A DNA stretch of 64,000 bases, taken from NCBI GenBank assembly GCA_044892505.1, contig CM097884.1, positions 20,522,001 through 20,586,000 on the forward strand, given 5' to 3'. Position 1 is the stretch's first letter. Each line of letters starts with the position of its first letter. Positions 16,562-51,500 of this stretch are shown one piece after another. Both the position numbers and the translations under genes were made by a program. The stretch comes from Schmidtea nova. Its lineage: Eukaryota. The notes below the pieces were generated by a model. That model was not told where the DNA came from. It was given only the letters and a program-made list of their open reading frames with translations, and did no database searches.

Positions 16562-17200
16562 GATATGGAAACCATCTGACATCATTATTCTACAATGAAT
16601 CGAAGGTAGTTCCCGAAAGACACATTGACGTTGATTGAAGCTAATAATCAATCAAAATATCATCAAAGAAATTATGATTCCACTCATGTTTGAAATTTTC
16701 AAAGCTCTAACTGTCTTTTTTCTATTCAAGTTTAGCTATCTTTTTATGCTTCTGGAAAATCAGCTGGGTATGCTTTATCCCATGCTATTGGTATAATTTA
16801 TTTAACTAGAAGATACGTAACTGATAATCTAATAAAAATTATGACCAAGAGGGACATAATTTTATAACTACAGCCGAGAGAAAATTTGCCAGAGATAATA
16901 AAGAAAAACTATCATATTTAGCTCTTGATTTTGAACTTAAAATGCAATCAACTATCTCTACATCTTCATTTGAAAGAGAATGCTTACGATCAAACAATAA
17001 AAATAAATAAATAATTTCAAACCGTTCCAGAATATGTCATCACCATTATCAAGTTTCAAGTTCAAACATTTTATTATATTGATGTTCATTCATCCGGTTT
17101 TTCTGATGTCAACTTTATATTATATTGTGATCCTGAAATTCGCAACTCAAAAAAGTTTACTTCAAAGACGGTCATCTTTAAGTGAAGTTTCACAATAATG
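16562..17200 (+). pseudogene. Actin pseudogene fragment (intronless, multiple stops and frameshifts)
   Basis: Collinear actin-like fragments: DMETI*HH..FYNESKVVPERH, MFEIF, SFYASG, GYALSHAI..YVTDNLIKIM, GHNFITTAERKFARDNKEKLSYLALDFE, VITI, CDPEIR. Confidence 0.85.
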
Positions 17201-24065: not shown

Positions 24066-25460
24066 CCCCGGCCTACCAAAAGTCTCCAGCTAGGCAATTA
24101 TTTACATATTGCAGTTTATAATGAACAGTTTATAATGAACAGCAGTGGGAACAACTGTCAAAAACACACACGAATACTGAATGTTTGTAGTGATGAGAGA
24201 GTTAGTACTTCGTTATATTACCTTTCATCTGGATAACAAGGCGCACTCGTTTAGGCATTGTATCGACCACTTTTGCCAGAAAATCAGGGGAGATGTGTGA
24301 CCATTTCTCATGCAGATGCGTTTCCAGTTCGGAGGCGTTAAAAATAAATGGGAATCCTTTTGTGAACTCGTCTACCAAGGACGTCCCACAAAAACTCAAT
24401 TGGATCTAGATCATAGCTTTGTAGAACCCAATCCAAAACGTTGATGCTGTGCTGCAGAAAGAATTCCTTCATAATGTGCGAAGTATGGATTGGTGCATTA
24501 TCCTGTTGGAAAATGAGCCCCTCAATTTATGGGAGAAAGGCAACAAGCTCATTTTCCAGAATGGCAAGCTATTCCACTGACGTCATGTGATTGCTGGACT
24601 TCACTATAGGGCCAGTTCCACGAGCTGAGAAAAGACTCCAAAACATGATGGAGCCTCCTCCATATTTCACATTTGGCTGAATGCAGTAAGGGTGAAATCG
24701 TTCTCCTATACGACACCAGCAGAATTTCTGTCCACCAGATTTGAAAAGAGTTCAACATGAGTCATCACTCCAAATGACTGAGTGCCATTGTTCTGCTGTC
24801 CAACTCCTTCTCTTCTGGCAGAACCACTTAAAGCGACGACGAAATGTTTCCGTAAAAAAAAGGTTTCCTTGCGCAGTATCTGCCATAGAAACCATGAAAA
24901 TTTAATGCGCGACGAATGGTGGACATGCTTGCATGCACAGGACCAGTGTTAAATGTGGACACTAACTTGGACAAGGGAACCGATGATGAGCCACCACAAG
25001 TCGTTTCAGCTGCCGTTGTGTACGGATGCTCAGACGTTTAGGGCGGCCTGAACGTTTCTTGTTAACATGTGTTTGCTACTGGCGGTACTTCCTCAGAAAG
25101 TAGTTAATAGTTCCTTTGTGATGGTCAGTCAATGCAGCAGTTTCACTCTGACTTTTTCCACAAAGGTAACATCCGTAAATACTGCTTTTCTGAAAGTCTG
25201 AAAACTCTCTCAAAGTAGCCATATTCTAAGAAAATGACAATCCTTCATTAAAATGACTCACTGTTATCACTGTTGTGTGTCTGGTGTGAGTAGTCATATT
25301 CTGTGTGTGAGTGCGTGCGTGTGTACATGTGTGCATGTGCGCATGTTGAAGGTGTTGGTGACCTTTGTTCCCATTGCTGTTCATATTTGCATTGCAGACG
25401 TTAATTATAAACTGCAATATGTAAATAACTGCCTGACTGAAGACTTTTGGCAGTCCGGGG
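24066..25460 (-). mobile_element. Tc1-family DNA transposon (1395 bp, degenerate transposase)
   Basis: ~57-bp imperfect TIRs (ccccgg...atttacatattgcagtttataat) and TA on both flanks. Transposase fragments SGRPKRLS, WSDDS, QQDNAPIHTS, DLDPIEFLW and MPKRVRLVIQMKGNITKY. Confidence 0.9.
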
Positions 25461-26373
25461 TATTTAAGTGACACGAATTAAAATCATGTCTTATGACATC
25501 TAGCGTCAAAAGTTAAAAAAGTAAAAACAAATTAGCCCCTAGAAGTCTTTAATTTATTATTTTACTACATTTTAAGATACTTAATGAAAAATAAAATATA
25601 AATAATATAAATTGCATAATCCCTAGAAGGTTTCAGTCAATAAAGTATTAAAAATAACAAAAATCTACAAAAATTTACAAATTAAAAAATAATCAATAGG
25701 ATCAGATAATAAAATCAATAAATTATTGCATAAGGCATCACATAAAATCTACAAATTAAATAAAAATGCACCACAAAAGAATCAAATCAGTAAAATCAAT
25801 TGTCAATGTTAATAAAATACATCAATAAAGTGCATCAGAATAATTTGGACTAGAATCAATAAGGTTCATCGAACTGATTGTACTTGAATTTCTCATTATT
25901 CTTTGCAATGTATATATTATTAATATATTGATCCTATACCTGTTTGAGCATATTATATATAAGCGTTGATTATTTTTTAATCTAGGAATTTCTACATTTT
26001 GGAATGAAGAATGTAACAAAAGAAATTGCAAATCACCAAAAAAAGGTAAGTGTACATCAGTTAGATAAAACTTTAAAAAACATGGAGCAAATTATTAATT
26101 TTTCATTTGATTAATTTTTATACTTCAATATGTGTAAGTCTTTTTGAAAAAATCAAACATCTAGTCCTATGATTTTTCTGGATGAAAATCTTATTTTCTC
26201 TATTAACATCTCTTATTTTTGTTTTAAAATCTTTTAGAATATTTGAAATTGTAGAAACTACTGTACATGTTCAACTATCGTATTATGTCACTTAATTTCT
26301 TTCCTTTTTTTAAGTTGAGTTTTTCATTTTATTAACTTCATGAATTAAATACAGTAGACAGAAGTGTGCTCCA

Positions 26374-26586
26374 TGACTCATCGTTAAACAAAGACAATGA
26401 CGTCATCGATGAGTCACCCATACCCCCCCGCCCCCCCGATGACTCATTTTTTTCTTTGTTATGACTCATCGATGACGTCATCGATGACTCATCGATGACG
26501 TCATCGATGACTCATCACATGACTCATCGATGACGTCATCGATGACTCATTTCAAATTTGAATTTTATGACGTCATCGATGACTCA
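26374..26586. promoter_or_regulatory. Outer AP-1/CRE array (9 TGA[C/G]TCA + 5 TGACGTCA)
   Basis: Counted directly; sites are mostly in optimal ATGACTCAT / ATGACGTCAT context. Function is inferred. Confidence 0.7.
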
Positions 26587-26680
26587 TTTCAAATTTAAAT
26601 TTTAAATTTCCAAAGGTCAAATAAGGTCAAACCTTCAAACAAGGGTATCATTCGAAAGGTCTTTGAAAGGTCTATCCAAT

Positions 26681-27170
26681 GGTCATACCTTCGAAGGTGT
26701 ATGGAGGGTCCTTAACCTTCAAGGGGTCAAAAACCTTTAACCTTTTACAATCCTTACAAGTTATATATCAAACAAAAGGTAATTGAGAGGTAAGTATGAT
26801 GGTCATACCTTTGAAGGTGTATGGAGGGTCCTTAACCTTCAAGGGGTCAAAAACCTTTAACCTTTTACAATCCTTACAAGTTATATATCAAACAAAAGGT
26901 AATTGAGAGGTAAGTATGATGGTCATACCTTCGAAGGTGTATGGAGGGTCCTTAACCTTCAAGGGGTCAAAAACCTTTAACCTTTTACAATCCTTACAAG
27001 TTATATATCAAACAAAAGGTAATTGAGAGGTAAGTATGATGGTCATACTTTCGAAGGTGTATGGAGGGTCCTGAACCTTGAAAGGGTCAAAAACCTTCAA
27101 CCTTTTTTAATTCTTATAATATGTACATCAAACAAAAGATAATTGAAGGGTGAGTATAATGGTCATACCA
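26681..27170. repeat. 120-bp tandem repeat, ~4 copies, inside the TIR
   Basis: Units start at 26681, 26801, 26921 and 27041 (last one diverged). Mirrored at ~43490-43980. Confidence 0.95.
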
Positions 27171-27194
27171 TTGAAGATTAAATTGTTTTCTTAA

Positions 27195-27396
27195 TGACTC
27201 ATCGGTATGATTTATTTGGATGACTCATTGGGATGACTCATCTACATGATTCATCAGTATGACTCATCAGTATGACTCATCAGTATGACTCATCAGCATG
27301 ACTCATCAGTATGACTCATCAGTATGACTCATCAGTATGACTCATTGGTATGACTCATCGGTATGACTCATCAGTATGACTCATCTACATGACTCA
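27195..27396. promoter_or_regulatory. Inner AP-1 array (14 TGACTCA, mostly 13-bp period)
   Basis: Unit tgactcatcagta repeated. Function is inferred. Confidence 0.7.
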
Positions 27397-28136
27397 TCAA
27401 CAAAAACAAATATTAACAAAGATATTGCAATGCACGTGCAAATTAACAAAGACTTTGCAAAGTGAATGCAAAGAAACAAAGACTAATGAAATATAATTTT
27501 TAATAATAATAATTTTTTGTACAGAGATAACTTGTGTGTGTGTGTGTGTGTTTAAGACAAATTACTGTACTCATTGAACGCGCGTGAAACGCGCGTTCTT
27601 CTTCCTTGTTGTATAAGACAAATCACAGTACGCATTGAACGCGCGTGAAACGCGCGTTCTNNNNNNNNNNNNNNNNNNNNNNNNNNNNNNNNNNNNNNNN
27701 NNNNNNNNNNNNNNNNNNNNNNNNNNNNNNNNNNNNNNNNNNNNNNNNNNNNNNNNNNNNNNNNNNNNNNNNNNNNNNNNNNNNNNNNNNNNNNNNNNNN
27801 NNNNNNNNNNNNNNNNNNNNNNNNNNNNNNNNNNNNNNNNNNNNNNNNNNNNNNNNNNNNNNNNNNNNNNNNNNNNNNNNNNNNNNNNNNNNNNNNNNNN
27901 NNNNNNNNNNNNNNNNNNNNNNNNAAAAAAATATATACCGACTTATATAACTTATAAAAAACTTTATAAAAACCTTATAAAAAATAGAACAATCAAACTT
28001 ATAAATTAACTTATAAAAAAATTTTATAAAAAACCCTGTTATAAAATAGAACAATTAAAAACTAACACATGCAATTAATCGATAAAATTACACAATATAC
28101 AAATAATAATAACAAATAAAAAAATAAATAAAATAT

Positions 28137-31100
28137 TTATTTTTTAAATGAGAAAATAAAATTATTCAAATAATGTTTATNNNNNNNNNNNNNNNNNNNN
28201 NNNNNNNNNNNNNNNNNNNNNNNNNNNNNNNNNNNNNNNNNNNNNNNNNNNNNNNNNNNNNNNNNNNNNNNNNNNNNNNNNNNNNNNNNNNNNNNNNNNN
28301 NNNNNNNNNNNNNNNNNNNNNNNNNNNNNNNNNNNNNNNNNNNNNNNNNNNNNNNNNNNNNNNNNNNNNNNNNNNNNNNNNNNNNNNNNNNNNNNNNNNN
28401 NNNNNNNNNNNNNNNNNNNNNNNNNNNNNNNNNNNNNNNNNNNNNTGTAGACGGCCGATCCTCTAATTCTTCATGTATACGTCTAATGTATGCATTAATT
28501 CTGACCGCTTCTGTTGATTCTCGATCCTCCCAAACATCATCATCAACATCATTATTGTGCACTTCATTTATAATTGTGTTTTCTCCCCGATAATGACCAT
28601 ATGCATAGCTTTTGTTTTTAGACACCCAATTGCGTTTGTCGTCGTTGCAATTGAGTGCCGTTTTTATATTTTTTATACTATATAGTTGGTGATTTTTCGA
28701 ACATATTCGAAACTGCGGGACTTGGTATATCTTATTGTTATTAAAACAATCAAAGTAATTTGAATGGTGAAGCCCCGCAGTAGCTAAACATATACCCTTG
28801 GCTTTCATACTCTCTTCATCGCCAAGTAAACTATAACATTTGGGTCGAAGAAAAACCCACTCTTCATATTTGAAGCCCTTATTTTCGTCCTTAAATTTAC
28901 CTATAACAGAATCCAGATTACGTGAAAATAAGGGATGGTTAGGATTATAATTTGATGTATCCAAGAGTTGATCCCTAACCATAGCAGGCAAAAGAACAGA
29001 CAGTTTACAATTAATGATTTCAAGGAAGAAGGAATCAGTATCTCCTGCGACTATATTTATTTTACAATTAAATTCATTTCTATATTTTTGAAGCTCAACA
29101 TACTGTAATTCATACATTCTAAGTTTAGATAGGTCTAGTACCGTTTGACCTATGTAACTAGGCCTATCTAAACATACTGATTCCTTTCTTAAAAGCACAG
29201 AGATAAGGTTATCGTCTATTTTTGTGGTTTTCCTAAAATATGGACTACTGCTATAGGTAATTAACTTACGTGCAGAATTGCAAAGTCTTAAATTAATACG
29301 TTTTTTAAGATTCTCTACGGTCTTGCCGTAGAGACTGTTATTTAAAAGTTTAAAGTAATTCTTATCCAGCTTCGTGGTGGAAGAAGCTCGCAAAGCAGTA
29401 TTCGTATCCACGTATTTTTTAAATAAAGTAGTTTGCCTAAATCTTATGGCACGATGAATTTTGGTCACAACCACCCCTAACTTCAAAAACATCTGCAAAA
29501 GCCGCCAATGAAGCACATAATTTTTCTTTGGTAAATGCGTCAAAAGAAGCTTTTGCACCTTCGAGCCTGGCGCACACATCTTTTCAGCGGCTACTGGCAA
29601 ATCATCCAGTAAGTCGTGAATAGATGCCGGTATTTCTAAATCAACTTCTATGGTATAACCATAGCTAAGCTGACATAAATCAACCGTAGTGCATTCAAAC
29701 AAGATATTTTCAAGCAAGTGGTCATCCGTGACCCAAACAAAGTCTCCGTCCGGTAAGTTTTGTGAAAGAGCCCAGCCATACAGATTGTTAATATCTATGT
29801 ACAGCAACTCTGTATCTGAGCTCGTTCGCACATGATGTTTATTAACAAAAGTGAGGCCACCCCTGATTCCACCTTCAAAAAAGTTGTACATCTCCATATC
29901 GGTCAAAAGCTCGATAGGAGATTCCAAGGTCATTAAAGCAGAACACCAGCTCATGCCTGGTATGCCTAAAAAATTCAAAGGCTCAAGTCTGTTGTGAGCT
30001 ATACTTTTTGCTCGAAATTGTTGAAAATAATCAGCCAACAGAAATATGTCAAGTTTCATGTAAACCATCATATAATCAAATAATGAGGTACATGAATTTT
30101 CTCTCCATATTTCTTTTGCCTTTTCATAATCAGCAATATCGACACCTTCCCAAATCGGTGGCAATTCATGAGTAGACCTCAAGACTTCTAAAGATGTTGC
30201 TACGTCATATGGAAAAATCCCCTTACTAGTGATAATTGTCCCAATAAATTCCGAAGAAGTAAGTGGGAAAGATGATAAAGTTTTAACAAGACTATTTAGA
30301 GATTCACTTGCAAATTGGTATGAATCTATGAACTTCACTGTGAGTGATCCGATTCTCGCAAAAAGTGCTAGAAACTTTTCACTAGTGACAGGAACACAAC
30401 TAATGTTCCAAGATTCATACTTTGATAATCCGAATTTGAGGATATGATGCAAGTCATATCCCCTTAAATTATGAAATACTATAGGCAAAGTGTGTCTAAT
30501 TTGCCGAGAGACGTTACATTTTTTGCATGCTGCTCCAAGATAAGCACCTGTAAAGTGATCGTGATCTTTAACAGGATTTTCTATTACTTTTTCACACAAG
30601 TAGCAGTGTGTCGCAGCTTGGAAATTTATTATATCAGCATAAGTTAAAATAATCTTCTTATCATAATTTTTATAATAATAAGGTGTTACAATTTTTCTAC
30701 TAATTTGTTCAATTTCGTATAGAAACCGGTCAACACATTCAGTACCAAAAAATGATTTATAAAACTTCTCCCCAGTGAAATTATTGATACATAAAAGCCC
30801 TGCTGAAATGGGCAAGTGTTTTTGAAAGTACTTGGTGTCCCTAGGTAAGATTGCCTCAAAATCGGCATAAATGACAAATGGTGGTGTTACAGTCTTTTTC
30901 CAATCAGTGAATTCCAATAATTTATTCTTAGGCAGAGTGTATAATGTCGTACCTATTTGATTGGCATCACAAAGACCTCGATGACGGTTAAATGTGTCAG
31001 TATTACGAAAGCCATGTAAACACCTAGGGCACCATTTATTATAAATTCTCACTGGGGTTATTGAACTGTTTCGGCAATTAAGAAATCTATTTAAATCATA

Positions 31101-32473
31101 AATAGCTATGTAATGATAAGTTTTTTTAAATTCAAGCAAAAGTAAGTTTATCACTGTTTGTCCAACTATTTTGCTTTTATAAATAATATCTATATACGGA
31201 TGTTTCATCACTTCACTATTATTACTGATGTCAATTAATGCGTTTTCGTCGTAAGATAACACATTAATTGATAATCCTGGATTTAACAATTCAAATCGGC
31301 TAATGTTACTTAGCTTCATTGGCATGTCATTAATGTCATATCTAAGTGATGAAACATCGTAAGAAGAAGGTAGATTTCTAATATTTTCAGGAACTTCGTT
31401 GAAATGTTTAGCTGCTAAAACACTATATAGAAAACAAAGATTGTCGGTGTTGATGACATTGATTACACAATTCTTATGAATAAGAGATTTAGGAGTCTCA
31501 ATAAATTGTTTACCGCTTAACCTGCTTATCTCAGAATATTTGGTCAATACAAAACTTATGTATTCAATTTTATTTATTTTCCAATTCGAACCCTTCTCGT
31601 TCATTTGTGATATTTTTTCATTTAGTATAGTAATACCTTCGTCAACAAAGGTATTACTCCAAAAACGGGCGGAATTTGAAATAACAAAAGACTGATATTC
31701 GTCATCTTTTTCAAATTCCACCATAATACAAAATTGAATTTTAACAGATTTCATTTGAGAAATAATAGAATTTAATTTACTAAGCAAAAGAGAAGGAACT
31801 GAAAGAGTATTTAAATTTAAATGGGCAACATCCATCTTAACGATAATGTGCGATTTATTGAGGTCAGAGTCAACAGTTAAAAGACCTGTACCTATTTGAT
31901 TCACAGAATAAGAGTTGATAATTAAAGGTGTTATTTCCTCCTCATCAGACGAAATAACAATAAGATCAGATTCGTCGTCACTAATATTAATTATTTCGAT
32001 TTTATTAGGATTTTCTATTTTATTGATTTTAGGTAATTTATTAACAATTTCATTTTCTGTTATATGTTTTCGTTTTAATAAATTGGGAACGCTGTCCACA
32101 TTATTTTTTATTAATTTGGGAACGCAGTCCACATTAAAAGAGTTTGGAACAGAGTTCACATTATTTTTTAATAAATTGGGAACGCAGTCCACATTATTTT
32201 TTAATAATTTGGGAACGCAGTCCACATTAGATTGATTATTTTTTAATGTATTTGAAAATATGTTGTTAAAAAGAGTCTTTTTTGATCCTGTAAATTGACT
32301 TAAATGATTTCGATGTTTGCGATAAAAGTTTATATATGTGCTTGTTTCTAAAACTTTGCATATGGGGCATATCAGGTAAAAAACACAATTATATTTTTGC
32401 AAATAATACTTTTCCATAAGACTGTGACAGTCATTATGCAAAGTACTATTGCAGTATGCTGTGTAATATTTGC
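28137..32473 (-). CDS. polB: Protein-primed family B DNA polymerase (pPolB), main exon
   Basis: Pol motifs YIDINNLYG, KLLNNSLYGK and GDTDS; exonuclease motifs YADFE, FHNLRGYD and YMKLD; EndoVII-like CYLC..DHDHFTG..AACKKCN; N-terminal CPIC..H. The frame is open back to a ttag acceptor at 32474-32475. The true stop probably lies in or near the N gap 28181-28445. Confidence 0.97.
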
Positions 32474-32679
32474 CTAAATTAAAAATAAAAACATAAGACT
32501 ATAAGTTTTTTTAAATATTTTTATAGTAATAATTTGTTTATTATATTGATATCATAAAATATCATTGATTAAAATATATATCACATTTAAAGTAATAGAT
32601 TTTCATATCATTGAGTTCATAACAATAAATTAAAATTTTCTTAAAAATTAACAATACTTATAATTACTATACAACTAAT

Positions 32680-33051
32680 ATTGAATTTATACCATAAATT
32701 CCATATTAAATTTATACCATAAATTCCATATTGAATTTATACCATAAATTCCATATTGAAATTATACCATAAATTCCATATTGAATGTATAATATGAAAA
32801 ATAAAATTATTATAAAATCAAAATATATCTTTCTTAAAAATTATTATATAATCAATATACATCTTTCTTAAAAATTATTATTATAAAATCAATATACATC
32901 TTCTTAAAAAATATTATAAAACGAAAAAATATAGTAATTATAAAATGAAATATATATGTCTGTCTTAAAAACAATTATTATACATTCAATATGAAATTTA
33001 TAGTATAAACTCAATATGGAATTTATACTATAAATTCAATATCAGTTGTAT
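32680..33051. repeat. 25-bp tandem repeat (4 copies) with an inverted degenerate copy, flanking a second AT-rich repeat
   Basis: attgaatttataccataaattccat at 32680, 32705, 32730 and 32755; reverse-complement copies at ~32980-33051. Confidence 0.85.
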
Positions 33052-33140
33052 AAAATGAAAAATAATATATATCTTTTGTACACAAAATAAAATCATTACA
33101 AAATTAAAAATAAAATTATTACAAATTAAAAGTAAAAATA

Positions 33141-33761
33141 TTATAAAAATAATAAATATTTACATTTCTGACGACCATTATAACGGTCATCTACCAGATC
33201 TACTGGTGCAGCGTCCATAGAATCATCCCTATTCAGGGGCATATTATCATCCCTATTCAGGGGCATATTATCATCCCTATTCAGGGGCATATTATCATCC
33301 CTATTCAGGGGCATATTATCATCCCTATTCAGGGGCATATTTTCTTCCCTAATAAGGGGCATATTTTCTTCCATATTCAGAGGCTTAAAATTTTCGGTAT
33401 TTTCAAAATCATTTCTTTCTTCAGCTTTAAAATGAAAATAAATTTATAAATAATAAAATAATACAATAAATTACCATCAATGTCGACATTTAACCGCTCA
33501 TTTCTGCTTGCTGCCTCGTATTGATTTAAAATTGAAACATTTATTACTGAAATAATAATATTATTTTAATTAAAAATTATTTTAATTTTTACCATTTTTG
33601 TTCTCCTTTTCATTTTTAAAATTAATTGGCTTTGCTATATTATCAAACATGTTGCCTAAAGAAATTTACATGTTATAAAAACAATAAATTAAAAATAAAT
33701 TAATATTACCAATTTTGTTCATCTTTATCATTTTCTTGATATTTTCTGAAATATTCTGCAT
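33141..33761 (-). CDS. Four small spliced exons (33761-33710, 33655-33593, 33546-33475, 33424-33164) encoding an acidic repeat region; either the pPolB N-terminus or a stand-alone short protein ending at 33141
   Basis: Three GT-AG phase-1 introns (54, 46 and 50 nt) give one open frame MQNISENIKK...DIDAEERND...(MPLNRDDN)n...GRQKC. The donor at 33163 is phase-compatible with the polB acceptor. Confidence 0.7.
33224..33372. repeat. 24-bp coding tandem repeat (MPLNRDDN, ~6 units)
   Basis: atcatccctattcaggggcatatt repeated. Confidence 0.9.
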
Positions 33762-34241
33762 ATTTTTAATATTAATTTGAAAAAGTTTTTGTTTAAATTG
33801 TGACGAAATAATGAAAACATAGGGTATATATCACGTTTATTACAAACTTTATTCACGAGCCAATCACAAGCGAGATAGGGTAGAAAAAGTATGTGTGTAC
33901 ACTGAGTAAGTATGTTAAAAATCTCTCACCAAGTATGTGTGTTAATAATTCACTCACCAAGTATGAATCATGTCTTTGTTATATTGCACGATGCATGTCG
34001 GATGCAACGATACAAAGACACTACGTGACTAAAGTTTTTATGAAATATCTTATGGGTGTAGATGCAGATGTGAATACACCCAAGTTGATTTATATGTGAA
34101 ATAATTGAGTGTCTGCATGCGTGCCTGCATGCAATTTCTTTATAATTATCGAAAAGTATAGCTAGATGGATGTTAATCTGCAAATTGGATGTGAATTCTG
34201 CAAGTTTATAAAAAATAATAAATAAAACACAAATAATACAT

Positions 34242-34643
34242 TTATTGTTTTAAATAATCAATTACACCAGACAAGCAACCTTTATATGCACACATACTAT
34301 GGTCTTTATATGGACATAAGATATTTTCTGGAACATCTTCAAATTCTTTAAAATTATATTTAATTAATCTCAATTTCGGGAAATATTTCTTCAAAACTTG
34401 CAACTTTTCATTATCTGTAACATAGAATATAGCTCCTTTATTTTCAATATCATTCATAATGCATTTTGGACAAAAATAATCTTGTCCTTCAAACGATTCT
34501 ATACGATCAGGCCAGAAAGATAAATCACTGTATATATAATACAAGGGTGTGAAAATACTATTTACATTCATAATACATAATTCCTTAATAATTGTTCCTC
34601 CAATATCATTATAACCGTACATATCAATAAAATAACAAGTCAT
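34242..34643 (-). CDS. 133-aa accessory protein, possibly DEDD/RNase H-fold derived, with a C-terminal Cys/His cluster
   Basis: Clean ATG ORF in the operon-like array; N-terminal YFIDMYGY...IIKEL and C-terminal CPYKDHSMCA. Family call is tentative. Confidence 0.65.
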   Translation of the reverse strand: MTCYFIDMYGYNDIGGTIIKELCIMNVNSIFTPLYYIYSDLSFWPDRIESFEGQDYFCPKCIMNDIENKGAIFYVTDNEKLQVLKKYFPKLRLIKYNFKEFEDVPENILCPYKDHSMCAYKGCLSGVIDYLKQ

Positions 34644-34675
34644 TTTTTACAATAACATTTATTAAACTAAATTGT

Positions 34676-35051
34676 TTATAACATTGATTTTAGCCATGCA
34701 AGGCAATGTTGTCCACAAGTGATTGTTAATGGATGTTGATACCGAATTCTATTATACACAATAGGTTTACCAATAGTTTGTAATTTTCGAACAAGTAAAT
34801 TTGGATAATAATATCCAAAGGGATCAAATACATGTATCCGATCCGGTTTCACGTAAACCGCAATCCAATGTTCACCGCCCAAAGTAGAAGTGTGAGTATT
34901 TACAATGATGGCTTGATTCATTTTCAAATAAGGAATTTTATCTAACGGAAAAACTCCAATAAACTGGTTTCCCAATAGTTTTTTACCTTGTTGTAATACC
35001 TGAATAGAACTAATTAAAATAATAAATTATTCAATTAAAAACTTACTCCAT
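34676..35051 (-). CDS. Adenain-like cysteine (maturation) protease; join(35051-35047, 35009-34676)
   Basis: GEHWIAV, FDPFG and YQ....CGQHC catalytic motifs. A 37-nt GTAAGT...TAG intron restores MDSIQVLQQGKKLLGNQFIGVFPLD. Confidence 0.92.
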
Positions 35052-35088
35052 AATAATAGAAATAATAATAACTTTGGTTATTTATACT

Positions 35089-35169
35089 GTTTGAGCTCTG
35101 CTCAAACCAATACTGCTCAAATCAGCAATGTTTGAGCTCAAACCAATAATGTTTGAGCTCTGCTCAAAC
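35089..35169. repeat. Three GTTTGAGC(TCT)GCTCAAAC palindromes between the MCP stop and the protease start
   Basis: 35089-35107, 35130-35143 (no loop) and 35151-35169; a half site lies near 35114. Confidence 0.85.
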
Positions 35170-36384
35170 CAGTACTGTTCGATTGGCAGTAATTTGTACT
35201 TCATTTTCAAACAATCCATATATAATTACATGAACCGGTTCATCAATGGGTTTTGCAAACTTTATATCTAGCCTTAAATTACCGTTTTGTGGGATTTGAC
35301 TTTGATTTAAATCGAAATCGGGAGCCAGAACAAATGTAAAGAATGGATATTTTGCTTTAAATTCATCCAGACTTATACCACAATTCAAGTTTTTATCCAA
35401 ATATCCTAAATTTCGGACAAGACTTTGCATATATGTGGCACTAAAATTATCATTTTCAAAATCTTGAGTATAAGTTTCTCGATAATCGGTATTTTTCGAC
35501 AATGATAATGAAGTTACATTAAAGTGTTTGAATGAAGATGAAGATTCAGCATATGATCCGTTATATTGATTTTCAGTTTGAAAAGCTACAAGAATGAAAT
35601 TAGGCATTCTTCTATCTCCAAATATTTGCTCCTTGTAAAATGATGATGCACCTTTCCCAATAGCAAACGATACGATTTCTTTGGATTTTATCGGATAAAT
35701 TGCATGTTTGCTATTTAAACCAATTTGATGACCGGCCAAAACTGAAGATTCACACCGAACTCTTCTTACCATTAATTTAGCGTCTACTAATTGGAGTATT
35801 GGTTTCCCAGTTGCCGATTTCAGTGATAATGCAGAATCAGATCGCTTCAATCTAATATGTACATTAACTCCGGGAAGTAAGTATTTAGGTTGATCCATAA
35901 AATCAAGTTGTAATGATGAACACATGTTAAAAAGTTTCGATCCCTTGATCCACTTTTTTCTATCGTCACTTGCACCATATCCCATTGGAGTAAGACAAGT
36001 TTCTTTTGAATCGTTCGTATAATTTAAAATAGTTTCGATTATTGCCTTGTGTGCATATGTATTGTTTCCACCCTCGATTTTTATATTATTAAATCCAAGA
36101 ATCACATCTTTGAAAAGTGTATGAAACAAGTAATTATTAGGTACTACATCACTCGCATCAACTAATTTATTTTTATCTTTATCTACAACTTTGACCGTAA
36201 CGGATAATAACGTATCGTTCAAATCCAAATATTCGGTTGCCGATCCATTAATGTAAAATTCAACATCATTTCTACTATCTGTAATAGAATTCATTGGAAA
36301 CACATCTTCAAACACCCCATATTCAATAACTGCTTGGGGGCTTGGTCGATCAAAAATACATAATTCAGATTTACCGCAAATCAT
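35164..36384 (-). CDS. Major capsid protein (double jelly-roll, Polinton PY/hexon-like)
   Basis: 406 aa; KSELCIF..P.Q, VEFYI.G...YLDL..T.L.V.VKV and C-terminal GNLRLDIKF....V.VIIYG patterns typical of Polinton MCPs; expected position. Confidence 0.9.
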   Translation of the reverse strand: MICGKSELCIFDRPSPQAVIEYGVFEDVFPMNSITDSRNDVEFYINGSATEYLDLNDTLLSVTVKVVDKDKNKLVDASDVVPNNYLFHTLFKDVILGFNNIKIEGGNNTYAHKAIIETILNYTNDSKETCLTPMGYGASDDRKKWIKGSKLFNMCSSLQLDFMDQPKYLLPGVNVHIRLKRSDSALSLKSATGKPILQLVDAKLMVRRVRCESSVLAGHQIGLNSKHAIYPIKSKEIVSFAIGKGASSFYKEQIFGDRRMPNFILVAFQTENQYNGSYAESSSSFKHFNVTSLSLSKNTDYRETYTQDFENDNFSATYMQSLVRNLGYLDKNLNCGISLDEFKAKYPFFTFVLAPDFDLNQSQIPQNGNLRLDIKFAKPIDEPVHVIIYGLFENEVQITANRTVLV

Positions 36385-36761
36385 TCTTCAAATATTGTTC
36401 CATGACCTTTCATTCGTTTGTTTATACGTCTTCGTTTACGTCTTGGTCCTACTGGTACAGGTTCCGGTTCATTTTTTGTAAACATATTTGTAATTGAAGG
36501 AATCATTTTTGTTACAGTAGGTATAGCTTTATTAACTTCGGCCAAAGCATTTGTTTTCAATGATGGTAATATTTTATTATCTTTCATGATAACATCCTTG
36601 GCAGTATTGAATCCAAAACTACCCAGTCGCTTAAGTAGTGGAAGTGCAAATCTACCAATAGTTTTCAACCAACCTGATCCATATTGTTTACCTATAAAAT
36701 ATGGTAATTCGCCACCAGTTTGGCTATTACTGTACAAAGAAACTATATCTGGATTACTCAT
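36381..36761 (-). CDS. PZ / pVI-like core protein
   Basis: QTGG..PYFIGKQYGSG followed by the amphipathic helix WLKTIGRFALPLLKRLG and a basic tail RRKRRR. Confidence 0.75.
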   Translation of the reverse strand: MSNPDIVSLYSNSQTGGELPYFIGKQYGSGWLKTIGRFALPLLKRLGSFGFNTAKDVIMKDNKILPSLKTNALAEVNKAIPTVTKMIPSITNMFTKNEPEPVPVGPRRKRRRINKRMKGHGTIFEE

Positions 36762-37779
36762 GATGTTTTCGAAAATGTAGAGTCAAATGAGTTTTCGAAT
36801 TTTTTGGAAAGTTTATTAAATTACCTTTATCATCTCGGATATTTATTTCTATATTGTTTATACAGGATGTTGAAACAGTTACATACATTGGATTTTCAAC
36901 TTGTATTTGAACAACCTCATCCTGTTCATATTTTTCAATCCATACCGATTTCAGTAAAGGAACCAATGAATCTCCAACAATTATAGGTTCAATAATGTTA
37001 CTGTAAATGAACATTTGCTGATGAAGTTTAATTATTTTCGGTTTATTTATTCCAGTAGTGAATTTTCCATCTTGAGCATATGTTGCTTTCAATAAACCCA
37101 ATGTTTTTACTAGGTTATTATCAAAAGTTATTTCGCTAACATCTGGATTCAAACTGAATTTGAAGTAAGTATCATCTAACAATTCCACCGACTTAAAAAT
37201 ACTTGCACAATTTAGAATTAAATATGATTTCATTTCATCCAGTTTCGATATGTATAAATTATCGGCAAATGTATGGATAAATACAGAATCAGCCTTATAC
37301 TCCATCTTTAATCTAATATTTTCAGTAACTGGACCATCTATACCATAATATGGTAACGGTATCTTGTATGTATCTGTAGGACTTACAATACTCTGTTTCG
37401 TTAATCCCATTCTTTTCGCCATTGCCAAAGTATCAAATGTTATAGTGAAGGGAAAATGATCACAGGTAAAATAAATAGATTGTCTATCACTCAACATTTG
37501 AGCAATATCATCGGCAGGATTAGATATGTCAACTTCACAAAATTGATTGTTAATAATCAAATTTTTATATTTTGTATGTATAGTTTTCTTTTTGTATCGA
37601 ATTTCAGCTTTACTGTAAAATGGAAATGGATTATACACAAATGTAAAGTCTAAGAGAGCGACTTCCCAAATCCCGTCCAAATACATTGGATTTTGGAGAT
37701 TGACCATGAAATTACTTGCTGTATTATCTGGATGTATGTCTGGACAACTGTTGCTAGGTAGAATCATATAAAAATTCAT
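36754..37779 (-). CDS. Minor capsid protein (penton-like, single jelly-roll)
   Basis: MNFYMILPSNS..NT.SNF...L...WEVAL; MFIYSNII....VGD..VPLL; NIEINIRD..G..I.F. Start at 37779 (ATGA overlap with the integrase stop) is preferred over 37806. Confidence 0.9.
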   Translation of the reverse strand: MNFYMILPSNSCPDIHPDNTASNFMVNLQNPMYLDGIWEVALLDFTFVYNPFPFYSKAEIRYKKKTIHTKYKNLIINNQFCEVDISNPADDIAQMLSDRQSIYFTCDHFPFTITFDTLAMAKRMGLTKQSIVSPTDTYKIPLPYYGIDGPVTENIRLKMEYKADSVFIHTFADNLYISKLDEMKSYLILNCASIFKSVELLDDTYFKFSLNPDVSEITFDNNLVKTLGLLKATYAQDGKFTTGINKPKIIKLHQQMFIYSNIIEPIIVGDSLVPLLKSVWIEKYEQDEVVQIQVENPMYVTVSTSCINNIEINIRDDKGNLINFPKNSKTHLTLHFRKHHE

Positions 37780-38820
37780 TTTACTAGGTTTTTTGACGAT
37801 ATCCATGATGGTTCCTTATATCCATGCCACTTGACATAGTATTGTTTATCCTTACCTACCATTTTAGTTTTCAATATTTTTTGAATTCTAAATATTGTCG
37901 GTGGAGGTATAACTTGTAATTCTTGTTCATAGAATTTCCCACTGACTATATTGTTATCAGAGTCAGAAATAGTATACATGACAGGATTCTGGACTGTGTT
38001 GACCTTCGATATTTTAAATACCTCATCACTCCAATTACTATCAAAATTTTTAATGAATGGCGATGCACTAATTTTACTAATTCGAACATGATCACCTATT
38101 TTATATTTTGGTTTCTTGATTATTGTATCACTCACGATATTTTCAGTATTAACTACTTCTGCAGGTTTCCTGCCATTTATACCTCGATGAGCAGAATGAT
38201 TATAACTATGGATCATTTGTGGTAAAACATTAATCCATGTTTTATTACCTTGATGTACAAAATACTTTTTGAGCCGATCTCGTAATGTACGATTAAATCT
38301 CTCGACATGAGCGGCTTTGAATTGCGAGAATACCGAATAATGATTGATTCCCTTGATAACTTCCTTGACTTTACTGTTGTAAAATTCCTTACCTAAAAAA
38401 TATTAAATCAATAAATTATAATTAAAATTTACCCAAATCGGTTTGTAAATTTGTTGGACGATCCTTTTTCATCATTGCTTTGATCGCGATTGCCATATCA
38501 TTACCAGATTTCGATTTTACTGCGATTGCCCGCGCAAAACGACTGTAAACATCAATACATGTTAAAATATACTTGTATCCCTTGTTAATTTTTGAATACG
38601 GAATCATTTCCATCAAATCCATTTGCCACAAATCATTGATTCTATACGTTTTATATGATCTAGTTGGAAACCGTTTCAGCATCGGTTTGTTTAGACTGTA
38701 TGCAAGTTGCCCCGATAACCAGCTTTGTGTCTGTTGTTTCGACTTCTGTACTTTTTTCCTTAACTTTTCGACTCCACCGAAACCGGCTTCGTCTTTCGGG
38801 TTCGTCCAGATCTTCTCCAT
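37776..38820 (-). CDS. Retroviral-type DDE integrase with C-terminal chromodomain; join(38820-38433, 38392-37776), 334 aa
   Basis: WQMDL (D1), LTCIDVYSR, QTDLG|KEFYN (D2, rejoined across a 40-nt GT-AG intron), HVERFNRTL (E), YNHSAH, chromodomain IQKILK...YYVKWHGY..PSWI. Confidence 0.95.
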
Positions 38821-38875
38821 TACAACAAGAAGATTTAAAGTTTAAATTTAAATTAGGTAATGATTGACCCATTGT

Positions 38876-39403
38876 TTATGACGTTCTTTTTCCCAATAAA
38901 CCAGCACCACCTAATAACGATAAAGCTAGGGGTAATAATGCAGCAATAAACCCTCCTTGTTGTTTATATATTATTTTACGCATAAGTTTTTTATTTTTTG
39001 TTTTTACAAGTGATAACAATGGTTTTTTATGCTTGTTCAAAACCCGACGATTAGAAGGAGTTAGATTCATTTTACCTCGTACGACTTTAATTAAAATAGC
39101 GAGTAAATCATCAATGACGTAATTGGGAAACGACTGAAGAATACCCATTCTTCTAGCACTGGGGGCTTTTAGCAATGCATTAAAAAACGGAAAACTCCGA
39201 TGATGTATTTGTTTAGGATTAGATTTCAAAATAGGGGGAATTTGATTTTGTTTGGGAAAATTATCCATAATTAGTTTTTTCGAAGGAGTATAACTTGTTT
39301 TAGAAACGGGTTTCGAAACTGATTTCTTTGTTTTCTTTGTTTTCTTCATTGTTTTTCTTGCCTTTATCAAGCGCTCAAACTTTACTCTAGATTTCATTAA
39401 CAT
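38876..39403 (-). CDS. Basic core protein with pX/mu-like C-terminus
   Basis: Lys-rich. Ends KQQGGFIAALLPLALSLLGG, resembling adenovirus pX GGFLPALIPIIAAAIG. Confidence 0.75.
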   Translation of the reverse strand: MLMKSRVKFERLIKARKTMKKTKKTKKSVSKPVSKTSYTPSKKLIMDNFPKQNQIPPILKSNPKQIHHRSFPFFNALLKAPSARRMGILQSFPNYVIDDLLAILIKVVRGKMNLTPSNRRVLNKHKKPLLSLVKTKNKKLMRKIIYKQQGGFIAALLPLALSLLGGAGLLGKRTS

Positions 39404-39423
39404 GATTACTACTGTAAATATAT

Positions 39424-40047
39424 TTAACTTTGTTTATAAACCATGGCTCCTTCCTTGTTAAAAATATCTGTTCTAACTCTTAAATCATCACTGCATTGTT
39501 GCGTAAAATCCAAGAAAAGATATCCATGAGGAGCTTTTGTAGCATCCTGAAACGCATCAATCAAGAAATTCCGATTAGAGGGGTATGCTTGTCTTGCCAG
39601 AAAATCAATAACTGTTGCATCACGAGGATTTTTAAAAACAACAAGATATTGAACATTTAAATTACGAGTTCGATGACTACCACCCTGATGAAATAAATTC
39701 TGAGTAATAAAAATAACTGTAACACCTTTGTGTCTAGCGATTTTCGTAAATAAATTATTAAAATCCTTTTCTTTATTTGCTTCTTGATACAAGTCATCAA
39801 TAATAATCACATCCCATTCTCTTAATCTAGATGACCAGTTTTTATCGAAACCTTTTATGATTGTCATTTTTATTTTACAAAACTGATCTTGAGTCATACC
39901 GCTTTCGTCGTCAGCACCCCTATGCCAATAAATTTTATTAAACTTTGATTTGAATAATTTAGATTGTAATAATTTACAAACAAATAAAGTTTTTCCGCTC
40001 CCGCTCGGGCCGACAATTTGGTACACTGCATCATTTCTTAATTCCAT
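39424..40047 (-). CDS. A32/FtsK-like DNA packaging ATPase
   Basis: Walker A GPSGSGKT, Walker B IIIDD, motif C ARH.GVTVIFITQNLF. Confidence 0.95.
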   Translation of the reverse strand: MELRNDAVYQIVGPSGSGKTLFVCKLLQSKLFKSKFNKIYWHRGADDESGMTQDQFCKIKMTIIKGFDKNWSSRLREWDVIIIDDLYQEANKEKDFNNLFTKIARHKGVTVIFITQNLFHQGGSHRTRNLNVQYLVVFKNPRDATVIDFLARQAYPSNRNFLIDAFQDATKAPHGYLFLDFTQQCSDDLRVRTDIFNKEGAMVYKQS

Positions 40048-40136
40048 TTTTGTAATTATTTATTAGTATTATTATTGTTTATATTGATTAAAATATTAAT
40101 TATCTCTTTGTTGTTAGATTTAAAATATTTTTAATA

Positions 40137-40604
40137 ATGATTAGAAACATTAATTACAAGGGTAAGACAGATGTGTCGCACATGATATTTCCAACTGGGA
40201 AACCACAGCAAATTGTAGATAGAAGTGGAAAATACCCAATAATATACTTTAAGACAGGCAGATATAGAATAATGGGATGCAAGGAATTTATTAGTGATGA
40301 AAAAGTAAAGTCTCACGATTTAACAATACAATCGATAACTGTGACTGCAGATTTAGGATTTATTTGTAATTTAAATGAGTTATCTAAATTGATTCCATGT
40401 GTTTATGAACCAGAATTATTTCCAGCTTTAAGATATACAAAATATAATCCAATGTGTGTCAATATTTTTGCTAGTGGTAAAGTAGTCATATTAGGATTAA
40501 AAAATAAAGACTATGCTAATATAGTTGATAATATTATTAACGATATAAAATCAATTATAGAAGATAAAGCCTTTGTTGATTTCATACTAACATGTGACTC
40601 ATGA
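40137..40604 (+). CDS. TATA-binding-protein-like protein (155 aa, core-only)
   Basis: Repeat 2: IQSITVTADLGF..L..L....VYEPELFPALRY..NPMCVNIFASGKVVILGLK, matching the TBP C-terminal repeat. Repeat 1 is shortened: IRNINYKG...GKPQQI...PIIYFKTGRYRIMGCK. Confidence 0.88.
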   Translation: MIRNINYKGKTDVSHMIFPTGKPQQIVDRSGKYPIIYFKTGRYRIMGCKEFISDEKVKSHDLTIQSITVTADLGFICNLNELSKLIPCVYEPELFPALRYTKYNPMCVNIFASGKVVILGLKNKDYANIVDNIINDIKSIIEDKAFVDFILTCDS

Positions 40605-40738
40605 CTGCAATATTCATGCAATGGAAATGCACGATTCTGATTGGTCGAGTGTGTATCGATAGAATAAAGACATGTTGTGCATACTTTATTCTTATTGGTT
40701 GAAAGTTGTTCATTTCGTACATGATGTGTGTTTCTATC

Positions 40739-40748
40739 GTATATATAC
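40739..40748 (+). promoter_or_regulatory. Putative TATA element upstream of the 40782 gene; ATTGG (CCAAT) boxes near 40641 and 40694
   Basis: gtatatatac 34-43 nt upstream of the ATG. Confidence 0.4.
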
Positions 40749-40781
40749 TAAGAACATTCGTTCATAATTTAGATTTTAAAA

Positions 40782-41367
40782 ATGTGTTTAAAAGAAACTA
40801 TGTTAAAAAGTGGTAAGGATTTTAATTAATTCTTTTCAATTTTAATATAATTTCTTTTTAGAAAAATTAATGAATGTCCTATATGGAAAGCTGGAGGAGA
40901 TGTTCCCGAATTTAATGACATCCCTGACTTATACGGCACCAGAACTCTTTCCGTATAAGATTCAGGTGCTGACTGGAATTGATGTCAATCAGCTCATCCT
41001 CGATCATCGGGCAAATAATCTCAATGAATTGCCAGTGGTAGCCGAGCACTTTCTCTGTGCATATAAGTGCGGAAATTGCGTGGAGAGGATCCGCCGATTC
41101 AATATTTGGCTCCTCAGAAACGCATTGAAGGAATTCGAGAATCAAAACCTCGAAACAATTGAGGAAGAAGATATGAAGGAGTCCTGGCCAAATTCGACTC
41201 CGGATCAATCTGATTGCCCAACTCTGGATGGGCCATATCCTATCGAATCGGATGAGCCAATGGAGTCTCCCGAATCTCCAGATTGTGCGGAATGCCACCG
41301 TAAGGCAGAGGATTGTGATGATAAAATAGGTTCGCAATCTCTTGGTGGTGATCCGTCAGACATTTAA
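40782..41367 (+). CDS. 178-aa acidic, Cys-containing accessory protein; join(40782-40812, 40862-41367)
   Basis: G|GTAAGG...TTTAG 49-nt phase-1 intron joins MCLKETMLKS to EKLMNVLY. Coding exon is GC-richer than its flanks; CGNC and CAEC; D/E/P/S-rich tail. Confidence 0.75.
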
Positions 41368-41937
41368 ATGTTGTTATTTTTTAGTTTAATGTCATTTTAG
41401 TTTGGTTATTTTTTAGTTTAATAAAAGTTTTTTAATGATTTTAGTTTTTATTGATTTTAGTTTTTTAGTGATTTTAGTTTTTTAGTGATTTTAGTAATAG
41501 TTTTTAAGTATTAGTTTTTACTTGACTTTAAGTTATTATTTTGAATTTAATTAATTATTTTAACTTTAAGTATTTAGTATTAAACTTTTTATTTACTAAG
41601 ATTAAAAAATAGTATTTGAATAAAAATTATTGTGAAATAAATTATTGTGATATAAATAAATACATATTTTATCCATATTTTATTATTGTGATATAAATAA
41701 ATACATATTTTATCCACTAACAGATCCTTACTATCAGTACATTAGTAGCAGAACATCTTTTGTTATGGTTTTTATGTGCAAAAGCTCATTACTTGAACAC
41801 ACACACACACACACACACTTACAACAAAGACATGCATAACGCGTGCAATACAAATGCATGATTGTGATTGGACAAAGGCATCCAGTCCTCACTATAAATA
41901 CAAAGTCATTTCTACAAATTTGTCACAATTTTTAAAA

Positions 41938-42354
41938 ATGGATTCACGAAAACGAGGTTATGATGTCAGCGAAGAAAGATTATTCCCGACTGAGGTGAAA
42001 CCAGTCCAGATGTATTATGATAGCCGAATCTATTTCTTGGTAGAAGAAATTCCGTTTCGCTTATCTTATCCCGTAAAATTAACAAAGTCGTTGTTTGATA
42101 ATCTATCTATTATTATTGATAAAGAGGATATTATCGCACTAAATAGAGTATTTTCAAAAATCAATGTGAATTTAATTTGTAAAGAAACGATGTATATCAA
42201 TAACAGGAAGACTCGTTTCCATAATGCTTATCAAACAATCGATTTCATTGATCAAGAACACTGGTTCGTTACGATAATCATTCAAGGATACAAGGTTGAT
42301 AAAAAGGAAGTGACAACTCCAATTTGGAGAGTTGATAATGCACGATACGCCTAA
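41938..42354 (+). CDS. 138-aa hypothetical protein, possible OB-fold ssDNA-binding protein
   Basis: ATG 41938 lies downstream of ATTGG (~41866) and TATAAATA (41893). Beta-rich C-terminus WFVTIIIQGYKV...PIWRV. Family call is weak. Confidence 0.65.
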   Translation: MDSRKRGYDVSEERLFPTEVKPVQMYYDSRIYFLVEEIPFRLSYPVKLTKSLFDNLSIIIDKEDIIALNRVFSKINVNLICKETMYINNRKTRFHNAYQTIDFIDQEHWFVTIIIQGYKVDKKEVTTPIWRVDNARYA

Positions 42355-42415
42355 TTGTTATTTAATAAATTTTACTATGAACAAATTTAGTTTTTTATTT
42401 TATTTTGTATTTAAA

Positions 42416-43018
42416 ATGAAACTGCTTATAACCATGTTTGTATTTTTATTGTGTGTTCAAAATACTGATGGAGAACAGGCTTTAGAAGCTTGCCAATCAA
42501 CCCATCCGTTTAGAAGAGAAGATAGTACTTGTGCGAGTTATAATGAAATATGTGTTTACTCAAACACTGAATGCAATCAAATAAAATTACAATGTGATCA
42601 ATGTCCTTCAAAAAAAAATAATTTGATTAATAATGATATTGAAAAAATAATTAGCAAAATAAAATTACAATGTCCTTCAAAAAATGATTTGATTAATAAA
42701 GAAATGGAAAAAATAATGATGAAAATAATGATGAAAATTGTTGAAAGTTTGAAATGTACGAATCAAACAATTGTTAAAAAACAATATGAAGTCAGATACC
42801 AAAATCAAACAGTTGAAAGCGAAAAAACATCGATAGTTTTACATTACATAAGTTTATTCATATTAATAATGATCTTGATATTGGCAACATCGATAAGGTT
42901 AGAGAATATTAATAAGAATAAAATTCCTGTAAATAATGTTCCTATGAATAATATTCCTAGTAGTAATAATTTTGAATCCAAATTTTGTACACGGTCGCAA
43001 CAATATATTTATAAATAA
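42416..43018 (+). CDS. 200-aa type I membrane glycoprotein with a Cys-rich ectodomain
   Basis: Signal peptide MKLLITMFVFLLCVQNTDG, Cys cluster, internal IKLQ..CPSK duplication, two NQT sequons, TM segment IVLHYISLFILIMILILATSI, short cytoplasmic tail. Confidence 0.8.
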   Translation: MKLLITMFVFLLCVQNTDGEQALEACQSTHPFRREDSTCASYNEICVYSNTECNQIKLQCDQCPSKKNNLINNDIEKIISKIKLQCPSKNDLINKEMEKIMMKIMMKIVESLKCTNQTIVKKQYEVRYQNQTVESEKTSIVLHYISLFILIMILILATSIRLENINKNKIPVNNVPMNNIPSSNNFESKFCTRSQQYIYK

Positions 43019-43049
<31 letters not shown>

Positions 43050-43052
43050 TAA

Positions 43053-44295: not shown

Positions 44296-44375
44296 AAATA
44301 CACACAATTTAGAAATTATATGAGTTGCTTTCATGACGTTAATGAATAAATAAAATTAGTTATCTTATCATTAAC

Positions 44376-50804: not shown

Positions 50805-51500
50805 AGAAGAAAACAAGTACAATGTAAGTGGACAATGTACGAGACACCGTTATCCCTTTATGTCCCCGAATCTAAAAGAAAGTCTCAAGAATGGAAACTA
50901 CCAGGAGAAAGAAGCTCACTGAAAATGCAGTCCTCAACTTGCCACCGAAAGGCTCTCATGCTGACGGTGTTTTGGGACGTCAATGGTATTATTCTGACTG
51001 ACTTTGCTGAATCCGGCGTGAAGATCAATAGTTCTTACTACTCCAACATCGTGCAGCAAGCAAGGAAGGCACAACGCAAGAGCAGAGTGTGTGATCTCTA
51101 TTTGTTACACGATAATGCTCCCATCCACACCAGCAGCGTTTCCATGGCCAAAATTGAGCGTTGCGGACTCAATTTGCTTCCCCATCCACCATACAACCCC
51201 AATTTGGCTCCCTCCGATTTTTTCCTGTTTAACCATCTTAAGAAGCATCTGCGGGGCCAGGTGTTTGCCAACAAGCATGATTTGAGAGCAGCCGTGGAGA
51301 GTTTTCTGGGAGAAAAGCCTCCAGAATTCTTCAAAAACGCCTTCGAAAACTTCGTTCATCACTGGGAAAATTGTGTCAGTGCAGAAGGAAATTATTTTGA
51401 GAAATTATGGCTATTTACCATGCTTGTTCTAAATACAAAGTTTTGTGTTGGTATCTTAAGTCTTTCTATTTTAGTCTCACGAATTATTGGGCGCACCACG
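50805..51500 (+). mobile_element. 5'-truncated mariner (DD34D-type) element
   Basis: MLTVFWD, LLHDNAPIH, LPHPPYNPNLAPSDFFLF and EGNYFEK; the first catalytic D region is decayed (TMYET). Ends ttattgggcgcaccacg followed by TA. Confidence 0.88.

Follow-up and report, generated by a model that had tools for sequence, protein, structure and literature searches.

Do the dense arrays of bZIP-type sites at the two ends of a mobile element reflect binding by a host factor, or only the copying that builds tandem repeats? The window analysed here is a 64,000-nucleotide stretch of Schmidtea nova DNA, in which a Polinton/Maverick element of 17,943 bp occupies positions 26353-44295, flanked by AAATAC duplications. 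Its outline is as follows, L001 being a related locus.

26347-26352: left 6-bp target-site duplication, AAATAC
26353-27603, plus strand: left terminal inverted repeat (TIR), first bases AGTAGA, aligned with the right TIR
28137-32417, minus strand: family B DNA polymerase ORF with motifs A, B and C and an endonuclease VII-like insert; the 3' part spans an N gap and the end faces the left TIR
34242-34643, minus strand: 133-aa ORF with no family match, common to L001
34676-35026, minus strand: adenovirus-type C5 protease frame (PF00770, E 6e-06)
35164-36384, minus strand: major capsid protein with double jelly-roll fold, by predicted structure and structural matches
36381-36761, minus strand: 126-aa conserved ORF between the capsid genes
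36754-37806, minus strand: 350-aa ORF, no Pfam or PHROG match
37776-38820, minus strand: rve integrase with chromodomain, in two reading frames (38422-38820 and 37776-38402)
39424-40047, minus strand: A32-like packaging ATPase (PF04665, E 1.1e-06)
40137-40604, plus strand: TBP-like protein (PF00352, E 6e-15), with a counterpart in L001
40870-43018, plus strand: three accessory ORFs (165, 166 and 226 aa), the last stopping 243 bp before the right inner array
43063-44295, minus strand: right TIR, last bases TCTACT, with mirrored blocks (inner 43261-43466, 120-bp repeats 43484-43981, outer 44073-44275)
44296-44301: right 6-bp target-site duplication, AAATAC

The 6-bp target-site duplication expected of a Polinton/Maverick is present on both sides. 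The length and the TIRs of ~1,250 bp fall within the 13-25 kb and 100-1,500 bp given in the accessible part of PMC10748475, and the termini AGTAGA...TCTACT share 5 of 6 bases with (AGT)2, which the accessible part of PMC8097293 lists, beside (AG)3, as a Polinton motif. By the ranges that these portions of the two papers provide, the sequence is that of a Polinton/Maverick. The arrays had been predicted to lie in Polinton TIRs, and the duplication, the long TIRs and the Polinton gene set bear this out.

The model of the capsid protein (pLDDT 85) has the capsids of iridovirus, PBCV-1, mavirus and Sputnik as top matches (E 5e-15, TM ~0.6). The protein has no match in the phage collection; 155 protein homologues were found, the best at 84%, all of them without DNA. 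From their positions, we take the ORF at 36381-36761 to be PW-like and that at 36754-37806 to be a probable minor capsid or penton protein. The integrase matches PF00665 (E 9.5e-09) and a chromodomain (E 6.2e-05). It is split over two reading frames here and forms one ORF in L001, while the protease frame (34676-35026, minus strand) has no ATG near the homologous start; an intron or a lesion is possible in both cases. The polymerase ORF, in which motifs A, B and C are present, matches no PolB profile in Pfam, PHROGs or the PDB sequences. A missing profile match of this kind is described for the divergent PolB of Beta-class adintoviruses in the accessible text of PMC8502044 (section 7), and the absent PF03175 match suggests that the element is Beta-PolB-like. 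The best PDB match of the TBP-like gene has an E of 4.7e-19, and its identity with the L001 copy (10246-10695) is 36%, with only the C-terminal repeat scoring; for non-animal MELD viruses, a figure legend likewise mentions TBP (PMC8502044, accessible part).

Among the accessory ORFs, none of the unassigned ones has a match in PHROGs, and ORFs 40870 and 41854 have none in the ESM Atlas. ORF 40870 also has no homologue, and its model (pLDDT 43) is unusable. Read by eye, the accessory ORF at 42338-43018 (plus strand) has a signal peptide, a Cys-rich region and a transmembrane helix, and it matches no family. The same lack of a family match holds for a 77-aa ORF (33141-33374, minus strand) that consists mostly of an 8-residue repeat (24-bp array) and has no counterpart in L001. 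Rfam gave 0 matches across 26000-44600.

The flanks are AT-rich (26-28% GC) with a CpG o/e of 0.96-1.03, and hold Penelope-like, Tc1-like, mariner and FLYWCH remnants (spans 6182-7396, 24200-25040, 44751-45026, 50835-51503, 16828-17010 and 57667-57879). Besides remnants of a mariner transposase, they include a Penelope-like RT/GIY-YIG ORF and, 455 bp away from the right end, a FLYWCH ORF; Tc1-like transposase remnants and short actin-like and HSP90-like fragments were labelled by eye. Control of the CRE sites described below by CpG methylation was rejected, the flanks showing no CpG depletion.

The two TIRs align over 1252 columns with 0 substitutions and four indel runs (1, 1, 12 and 6 nt), the right TIR having one 12-bp CRE unit fewer than the left. 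Such near-identical arms suggest a young or homogenised copy. An assembly artefact was rejected because the arms are unequal in repeat number and the target-site duplication is clean; assembler smoothing could account for part of the near-identity. From the terminus inwards, 20 bp are followed by an outer block, a single AGGTCA-N4-AGGTCA pair, 120-bp repeats, an inner block and an innermost module, which in the left arm are:

26373-26587, plus strand: outer bZIP block with 9 AP-1 and 5 CRE sites at a usual spacing of 11.5 bp, chained palindromes of up to 22 bp
26614-26629, plus strand: single AGGTCA-N4-AGGTCA pair
26679-27176, plus strand: 120-bp repeat in 4.2 copies, 0 AP-1/CRE, rich in AAGGT/ACCTT, one splice-donor-like word per copy
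27194-27399, plus strand: inner bZIP block of sixteen 13-bp units, ATGACTCAT being intact in 14; core kept, 4-bp spacer variable
27400-27660, plus strand: innermost TIR module with three AACAAAGA, CACGTG, (TG)n and ACGCGCGT pairs

AP-1 and CRE sites, and with them both bZIP half-site spacings, alternate over the 14 sites of the outer block. The AGGTCA-N4-AGGTCA pair is presumably nuclear-receptor DR4-like. Together with it, 27 AAGGT/ACCTT words lie in the middle module (26613-27105), which we take to be possible nuclear-receptor-type half sites. The splice-donor-like words, at 26788, 26908, 27028 and 27148 on the plus strand and at the mirrored positions, all point inward and none lies on the other strand; they could mark inward antisense transcripts or be due to chance. 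At 27546-27660 the left arm has a second ACGCGCGT-pair unit before the N gap, and the right arm has one. A coding explanation of the arrays was rejected, as the left TIR holds no ORF of at least 60 aa.

According to the original prediction, the left TIR contained about 23 TGA[C/G]TCA (AP-1) and five TGACGTCA (CRE) sites. The recount gives exactly these numbers, and 23 and four for the right TIR. By block, 26374-26586 contains 9 TGA[C/G]TCA and 5 TGACGTCA, 27195-27396 contains 14 and 0, 43264-43465 contains 14 and 0, and 44074-44274 contains 9 and 4. The two-block layout with mirrored right-hand blocks was thus correctly foreseen, with four TGACGTCA instead of five in the right outer block. In each TIR, 22 of the 23 AP-1 sites extend to ATGA[C/G]TCAT and every CRE site to ATGACGTCAT. 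That these words are consensus bZIP sites agrees with the accessible parts of two papers: the GCN4 crystal DNAs contain ATGACTCAT and ATGACGTCAT (PMC9976882), and the BATF3 SELEX motif is TGATGACGTCATCA, which the CRE context here resembles (PMC5449588).

Clustering of both sites in the TIRs is above chance: dinucleotide shuffles of the left TIR (n=2000) contain on average 0.32 AP-1 (max 3) and 0.02 CRE sites (max 1). In the 14.9 kb of N-free element interior there are 2 AP-1 and 0 CRE sites, and in the 44.9 kb of flank 8 and 2. As the sites are copies within tandem repeats (periods 11-12 and 13) and one TIR duplicates the other, the 55 sites do not count as independent, and the enrichment shows that the arrays exist, not that they function. 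Raw enrichment over shuffles was therefore rejected as functional evidence, the counts being inflated by tandem duplication, and selection on the core was tested instead.

In the inner 13-bp array, mismatches to the column majority amount to 3 of 144 in the 9-bp core ATGACTCAT and 19 of 64 in the spacer. Because the copies of an array are related, stricter tests were applied. Neutral duplication and mutation were simulated with a simple model (no gene conversion or sequence-dependent slippage), conditioned on a similar total; P was 0.0002-0.002 with the window fixed and 0.004-0.028 with the best of 13 chosen. Counting parsimony events, 3 fall in the core versus 7 in the spacer (P 0.012; 0.16 after correction for 13 windows). 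The core is thus conserved beyond the neutral expectation in the simulation and, before correction, in the stricter event count.

The 28 sites occur in 22 distinct contexts of 9 bp on either side, in which position -1 is A in 22 of 22 and +1 is T in 95%. Columns farther than one position from the core reach 36-68%, except +2, which is C in 82% (-2: 36%); conservation at +2 without a mirror at -2 indicates that shared descent contributes to the flank pattern. The site centres in the TIRs are C/G in 23 of 24 TGA-N-TCA and CG in 5 of 5 TGA-NN-TCA; outside the TIRs, the same centres are found in 10 of 20 and 2 of 26. A single indel in the 11-bp unit can produce 44 variants, only one of which is a CRE, namely the amplified one, and the five CRE copies may go back to a single origin event. 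The probability that a random 13-bp unit contains ATGA[C/G]TCAT is 1.6e-4 at this composition, uncorrected for other recognisable motifs. The evidence that these patterns give for constraint on the core relative to its flanks is moderate, not strong.

The reading that we consider somewhat probable on the sequence pattern is that the arrays are a distance enhancer bound by host bZIP proteins and built by tandem amplification. Each TIR carries two separate arrays, copied at the opposite end, and would be a modular cis-regulatory cassette made by amplifying short units. Binding by a dimer of host bZIP proteins, most likely of Jun/ATF type and able to accept both spacings, would be why the 9-bp ATGACTCAT and 10-bp ATGACGTCAT cores are kept. 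The core, statistically more conserved than its flanks, would have been retained during amplification. The use of exactly the two bZIP spacings fits a bZIP binder. By Pfam or pattern, none of the 15 ORFs of the element resembles a bZIP protein, so within these searches the binder would be a host protein, the host bZIP set being assumed.

The orientation of the genes was overlooked in the original prediction: the nearest genes end at the TIRs and do not start there. The 3' end of the polymerase gene faces the left TIR and those of the plus-strand accessory genes face the right one, which places the arrays 3' of the nearest genes. In the right arm, the inner array is 923-3,214 bp away from the gene starts; on the left, 5,018 bp separate the inner array from the start of the polymerase. 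As the genes run outward, a transcriptional role must act at a distance or in the inward, antisense direction. Given these distances (0.9-3.2 kb in the right arm, 5.0 kb for the polymerase), many dimers would load at either end and together enhance internal promoters from afar.

Two further words were followed outside the arrays. AACAAAGAC is found six times in the TIRs, twice inside the element (intergenic, upstream of ORFs 33374 and 41854) and once in the 44.9 kb of flank, and a second word has a single internal copy:

40594-40644, plus strand: the only internal TGACTCAT, next to a CCAATCA word and ~275 bp upstream of ORF 40870

Their placement weakly favours a transcriptional role; the words were chosen after looking and are leads only. 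CCAATCA words occur at 33860, 40638, 41865 and 42493, several of them intergenic, with 6 in the 14.9 kb interior versus 3 in the 44.9 kb flank. Those of the interior are possible internal promoters.

AP-1/ATF factors are typically stress- and injury-responsive, and for this reason element transcription would track the stress or injury state of the host. This is the weakest step of the proposed mechanism, and a stress-triggered activation of the element is doubtful. The original prediction is partly supported, in the consensus sites, their place in the TIRs and the conserved core; the switch for reactivation that it proposed, inducible by stress, JNK or cAMP, is a conjecture, as is its origin role. 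The same sites may also serve repression by an inhibitory bZIP.

An alternative that needs no binding at all is that slippage and fold-back copying made palindrome chains which spell bZIP sites, with a hairpin or cruciform as their function. The outer block fits this: it consists of perfect palindromes of up to 22 bp, which fold-back copying favours regardless of binding, and folds at -58.5 kcal/mol (z -10 versus shuffles). Slippage is still going on, as the otherwise identical TIRs differ in repeat number. Tandem arrays of other kinds are numerous in the element, AP-1/CRE occurring in 0 of the 11 tested, and the arrays of L001 are unrelated. The inner block, however, folds worse than its shuffles (z +2.0), so a hairpin role does not explain it; the spacers of its 13-bp units are non-palindromic, yet the core is kept. 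The isolated sites at 26374, 26398 and 26440 likewise have the exact core despite unrelated flanks. We regard a purely mechanical or structural by-product as unlikely, if still worth weighing.

Host bZIP sites could instead be auxiliary origin elements that load the terminal protein-polymerase, or could open chromatin for excision, and not be enhancers. Counted from the end of the TIR, the three outermost sites begin at nt 21, 45 and 57, about the distance at which the auxiliary NFI and Oct-1 sites of adenovirus are found. That the nearest genes end at the TIRs also suits this role, and baculovirus hrs are both origins and enhancers (PMC13513840, accessible part). Against it, 14 of the 23 AP-1 sites lie 840-1050 bp from the terminus, probably too far for an initiation complex, and L001 combines the same terminus type (AGTAGT) and a related polymerase with an end that lacks such sites. 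An origin role is compatible with an enhancer; as a replacement for it, we consider it improbable. It is very unlikely that a protein of the element itself recognises the repeats and that the AP-1/CRE likeness is incidental: ORFs 40870, 41854 and 42338 are absent from L001, which also lacks the arrays, and ORF 40870 is predicted with low confidence to be helical with an acidic tail, but none has a bZIP pattern or a DNA-binding family match in Pfam, PHROGs or, for the first two, the ESM Atlas, ORF 42338 reads by eye as a secreted or membrane protein, and the two spacings used are exactly those of bZIP sites.

How widespread such arrays are was approached by a scan of genome contigs, which gave three related loci. 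Of these, L001 reaches one (right) end and was used, and L002 and L003 were set aside as fragments from the interior. All three lie in records of bacterial metagenome-assembled genomes, probably through binning contamination. In L001, 11 of the 15 ORF queries match, including the TBP-like one, the capsid protein is 45% identical and the terminus is AGTAGT. A short inverted match at its left contig edge supports reading its subterminal region as a TIR. This region (847 bp) contains 0 AP-1 and 0 CRE sites, so that conservation of the sites was not found in the one locus of three that could be read. Its end repeats are arrays of 57-63 bp and 138-152 bp, unrelated to the bZIP arrays. L001 11220-12067 contains GTAAACA twice, GATA-like words five times, GCGCGC twice and many TATA-like words, counted with no null model run.

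Unrelated repeats in related elements had been named as what would speak against the prediction. This has come about in part: L001 carries them, as a single and distant case. The bZIP arrays are therefore not a general Polinton trait, though this is seen in one distant relative (n=1). A modular TIR built from repeats is common to both elements; the bZIP content, at 45% capsid identity, is not.

In the literature, no paper on bZIP arrays in Polinton TIRs was found among titles and abstract starts, a coverage that leaves subscription journals and Repbase outside. The supplements of PMC8502044 and PMC10748475 gave 0 motif matches, with 0 also for an end-motif control, so that they seem to contain no searchable TIR DNA; that of PMC8097293 gives, in cells of shortened text, only 6-bp end motifs. 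These zeros do not speak against such sites in other Polintons. The accessible part of PMC8363768 contains nothing on TIR content.

The way in which animal Polintons are switched on is an open question, and according to a 2021 survey their particles had not been observed (PMC8097293, abstract). Here a perfect AP-1/CRE site forms the repeat unit, which points to one class of host factor. The bZIP arrays are, judging from the sequence, a real, tidy and probably functional feature. If so, each insertion adds ~55 bZIP sites to the host genome, with possible effects on genes in its neighbourhood. Viral enhancers that carry bZIP sites in terminal sequences or repeats are an established principle, as in baculovirus hrs and the HTLV-1 LTR, and the absence of the arrays from the one relative examined limits the generality. 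By analogy with the U3 of retroviral LTRs, the TIRs might be fast-evolving cassettes in which amplification of host-factor sites (bZIP here, others in L001) tunes a lineage to the state of its host; the present lineage would be wired to the AP-1/ATF stress or injury response, and its own TBP-like factor would act at the promoter. This is a speculative extension to which we give little weight; if true, it would supply the first concrete trigger for animal Polinton expression.

Compared with Polintons/Mavericks (adintoviruses), the element agrees in its 17.9 kb, 6-bp target-site duplication, long TIRs, AGTAG end, PolB motifs, integrase, ATPase, C5 protease and double jelly-roll capsid (ranges from the accessible parts of PMC10748475 and PMC8097293). 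The TIR of ~1.25 kb is near the top of the vertebrate range of 46-1,447 bp, and the end is AGTAGA, not (AGT)2. Its genes point outward, whereas those of most vertebrate Mavericks point to the centre (PMC8097293, accessible part). It also carries a TBP-like gene, and bZIP arrays are not mentioned for Mavericks in the accessible portions of these papers.

Two other viral ends invite comparison. The adenovirus ITR, which carries NFI, Oct-1 and ATF sites, is ~100 bp long with single sites upstream of inward-pointing early promoters, in contrast to the kilobase arrays found here. For the ATF sites, the literature search gave no confirmation. Both systems have host-factor words, Sp1 sites among them in the ITRs, near a terminus that is protein-primed in adenovirus and presumably so in the Polinton. 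Repeated CREs, to which host CREB/ATF binds, also occur in the HTLV-1 LTR, the terminal repeat of a virus that integrates (PMC11946086, accessible part). There, three elements stand directly upstream of a TATA promoter and depend on Tax, whereas here 27-28 sites per end stand in inverted repeats 3' of the nearest genes.

The baculovirus hrs, already invoked in the original prediction as clusters of bZIP sites with an enhancer role, do provide such a parallel. In the accessible part of PMC13513840, they are repeated palindromes with clustered CRE/TRE words, and enhancer strength tracks the number of CREs plus TREs. By the definition given there, the present arrays are not hrs: their units are 11-13 bp long and terminal, and the listed palindromes have no EcoRI core. 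The hrs of baculoviruses, by the same source, are dispersed units of ~72 bp that contain a 30-bp palindrome with an EcoRI core and have IE1 as their viral partner. Their CREs are mostly non-consensus and their TREs number 0-2 per hr, whereas the sites of the present element are perfect, terminal and themselves the repeat unit.
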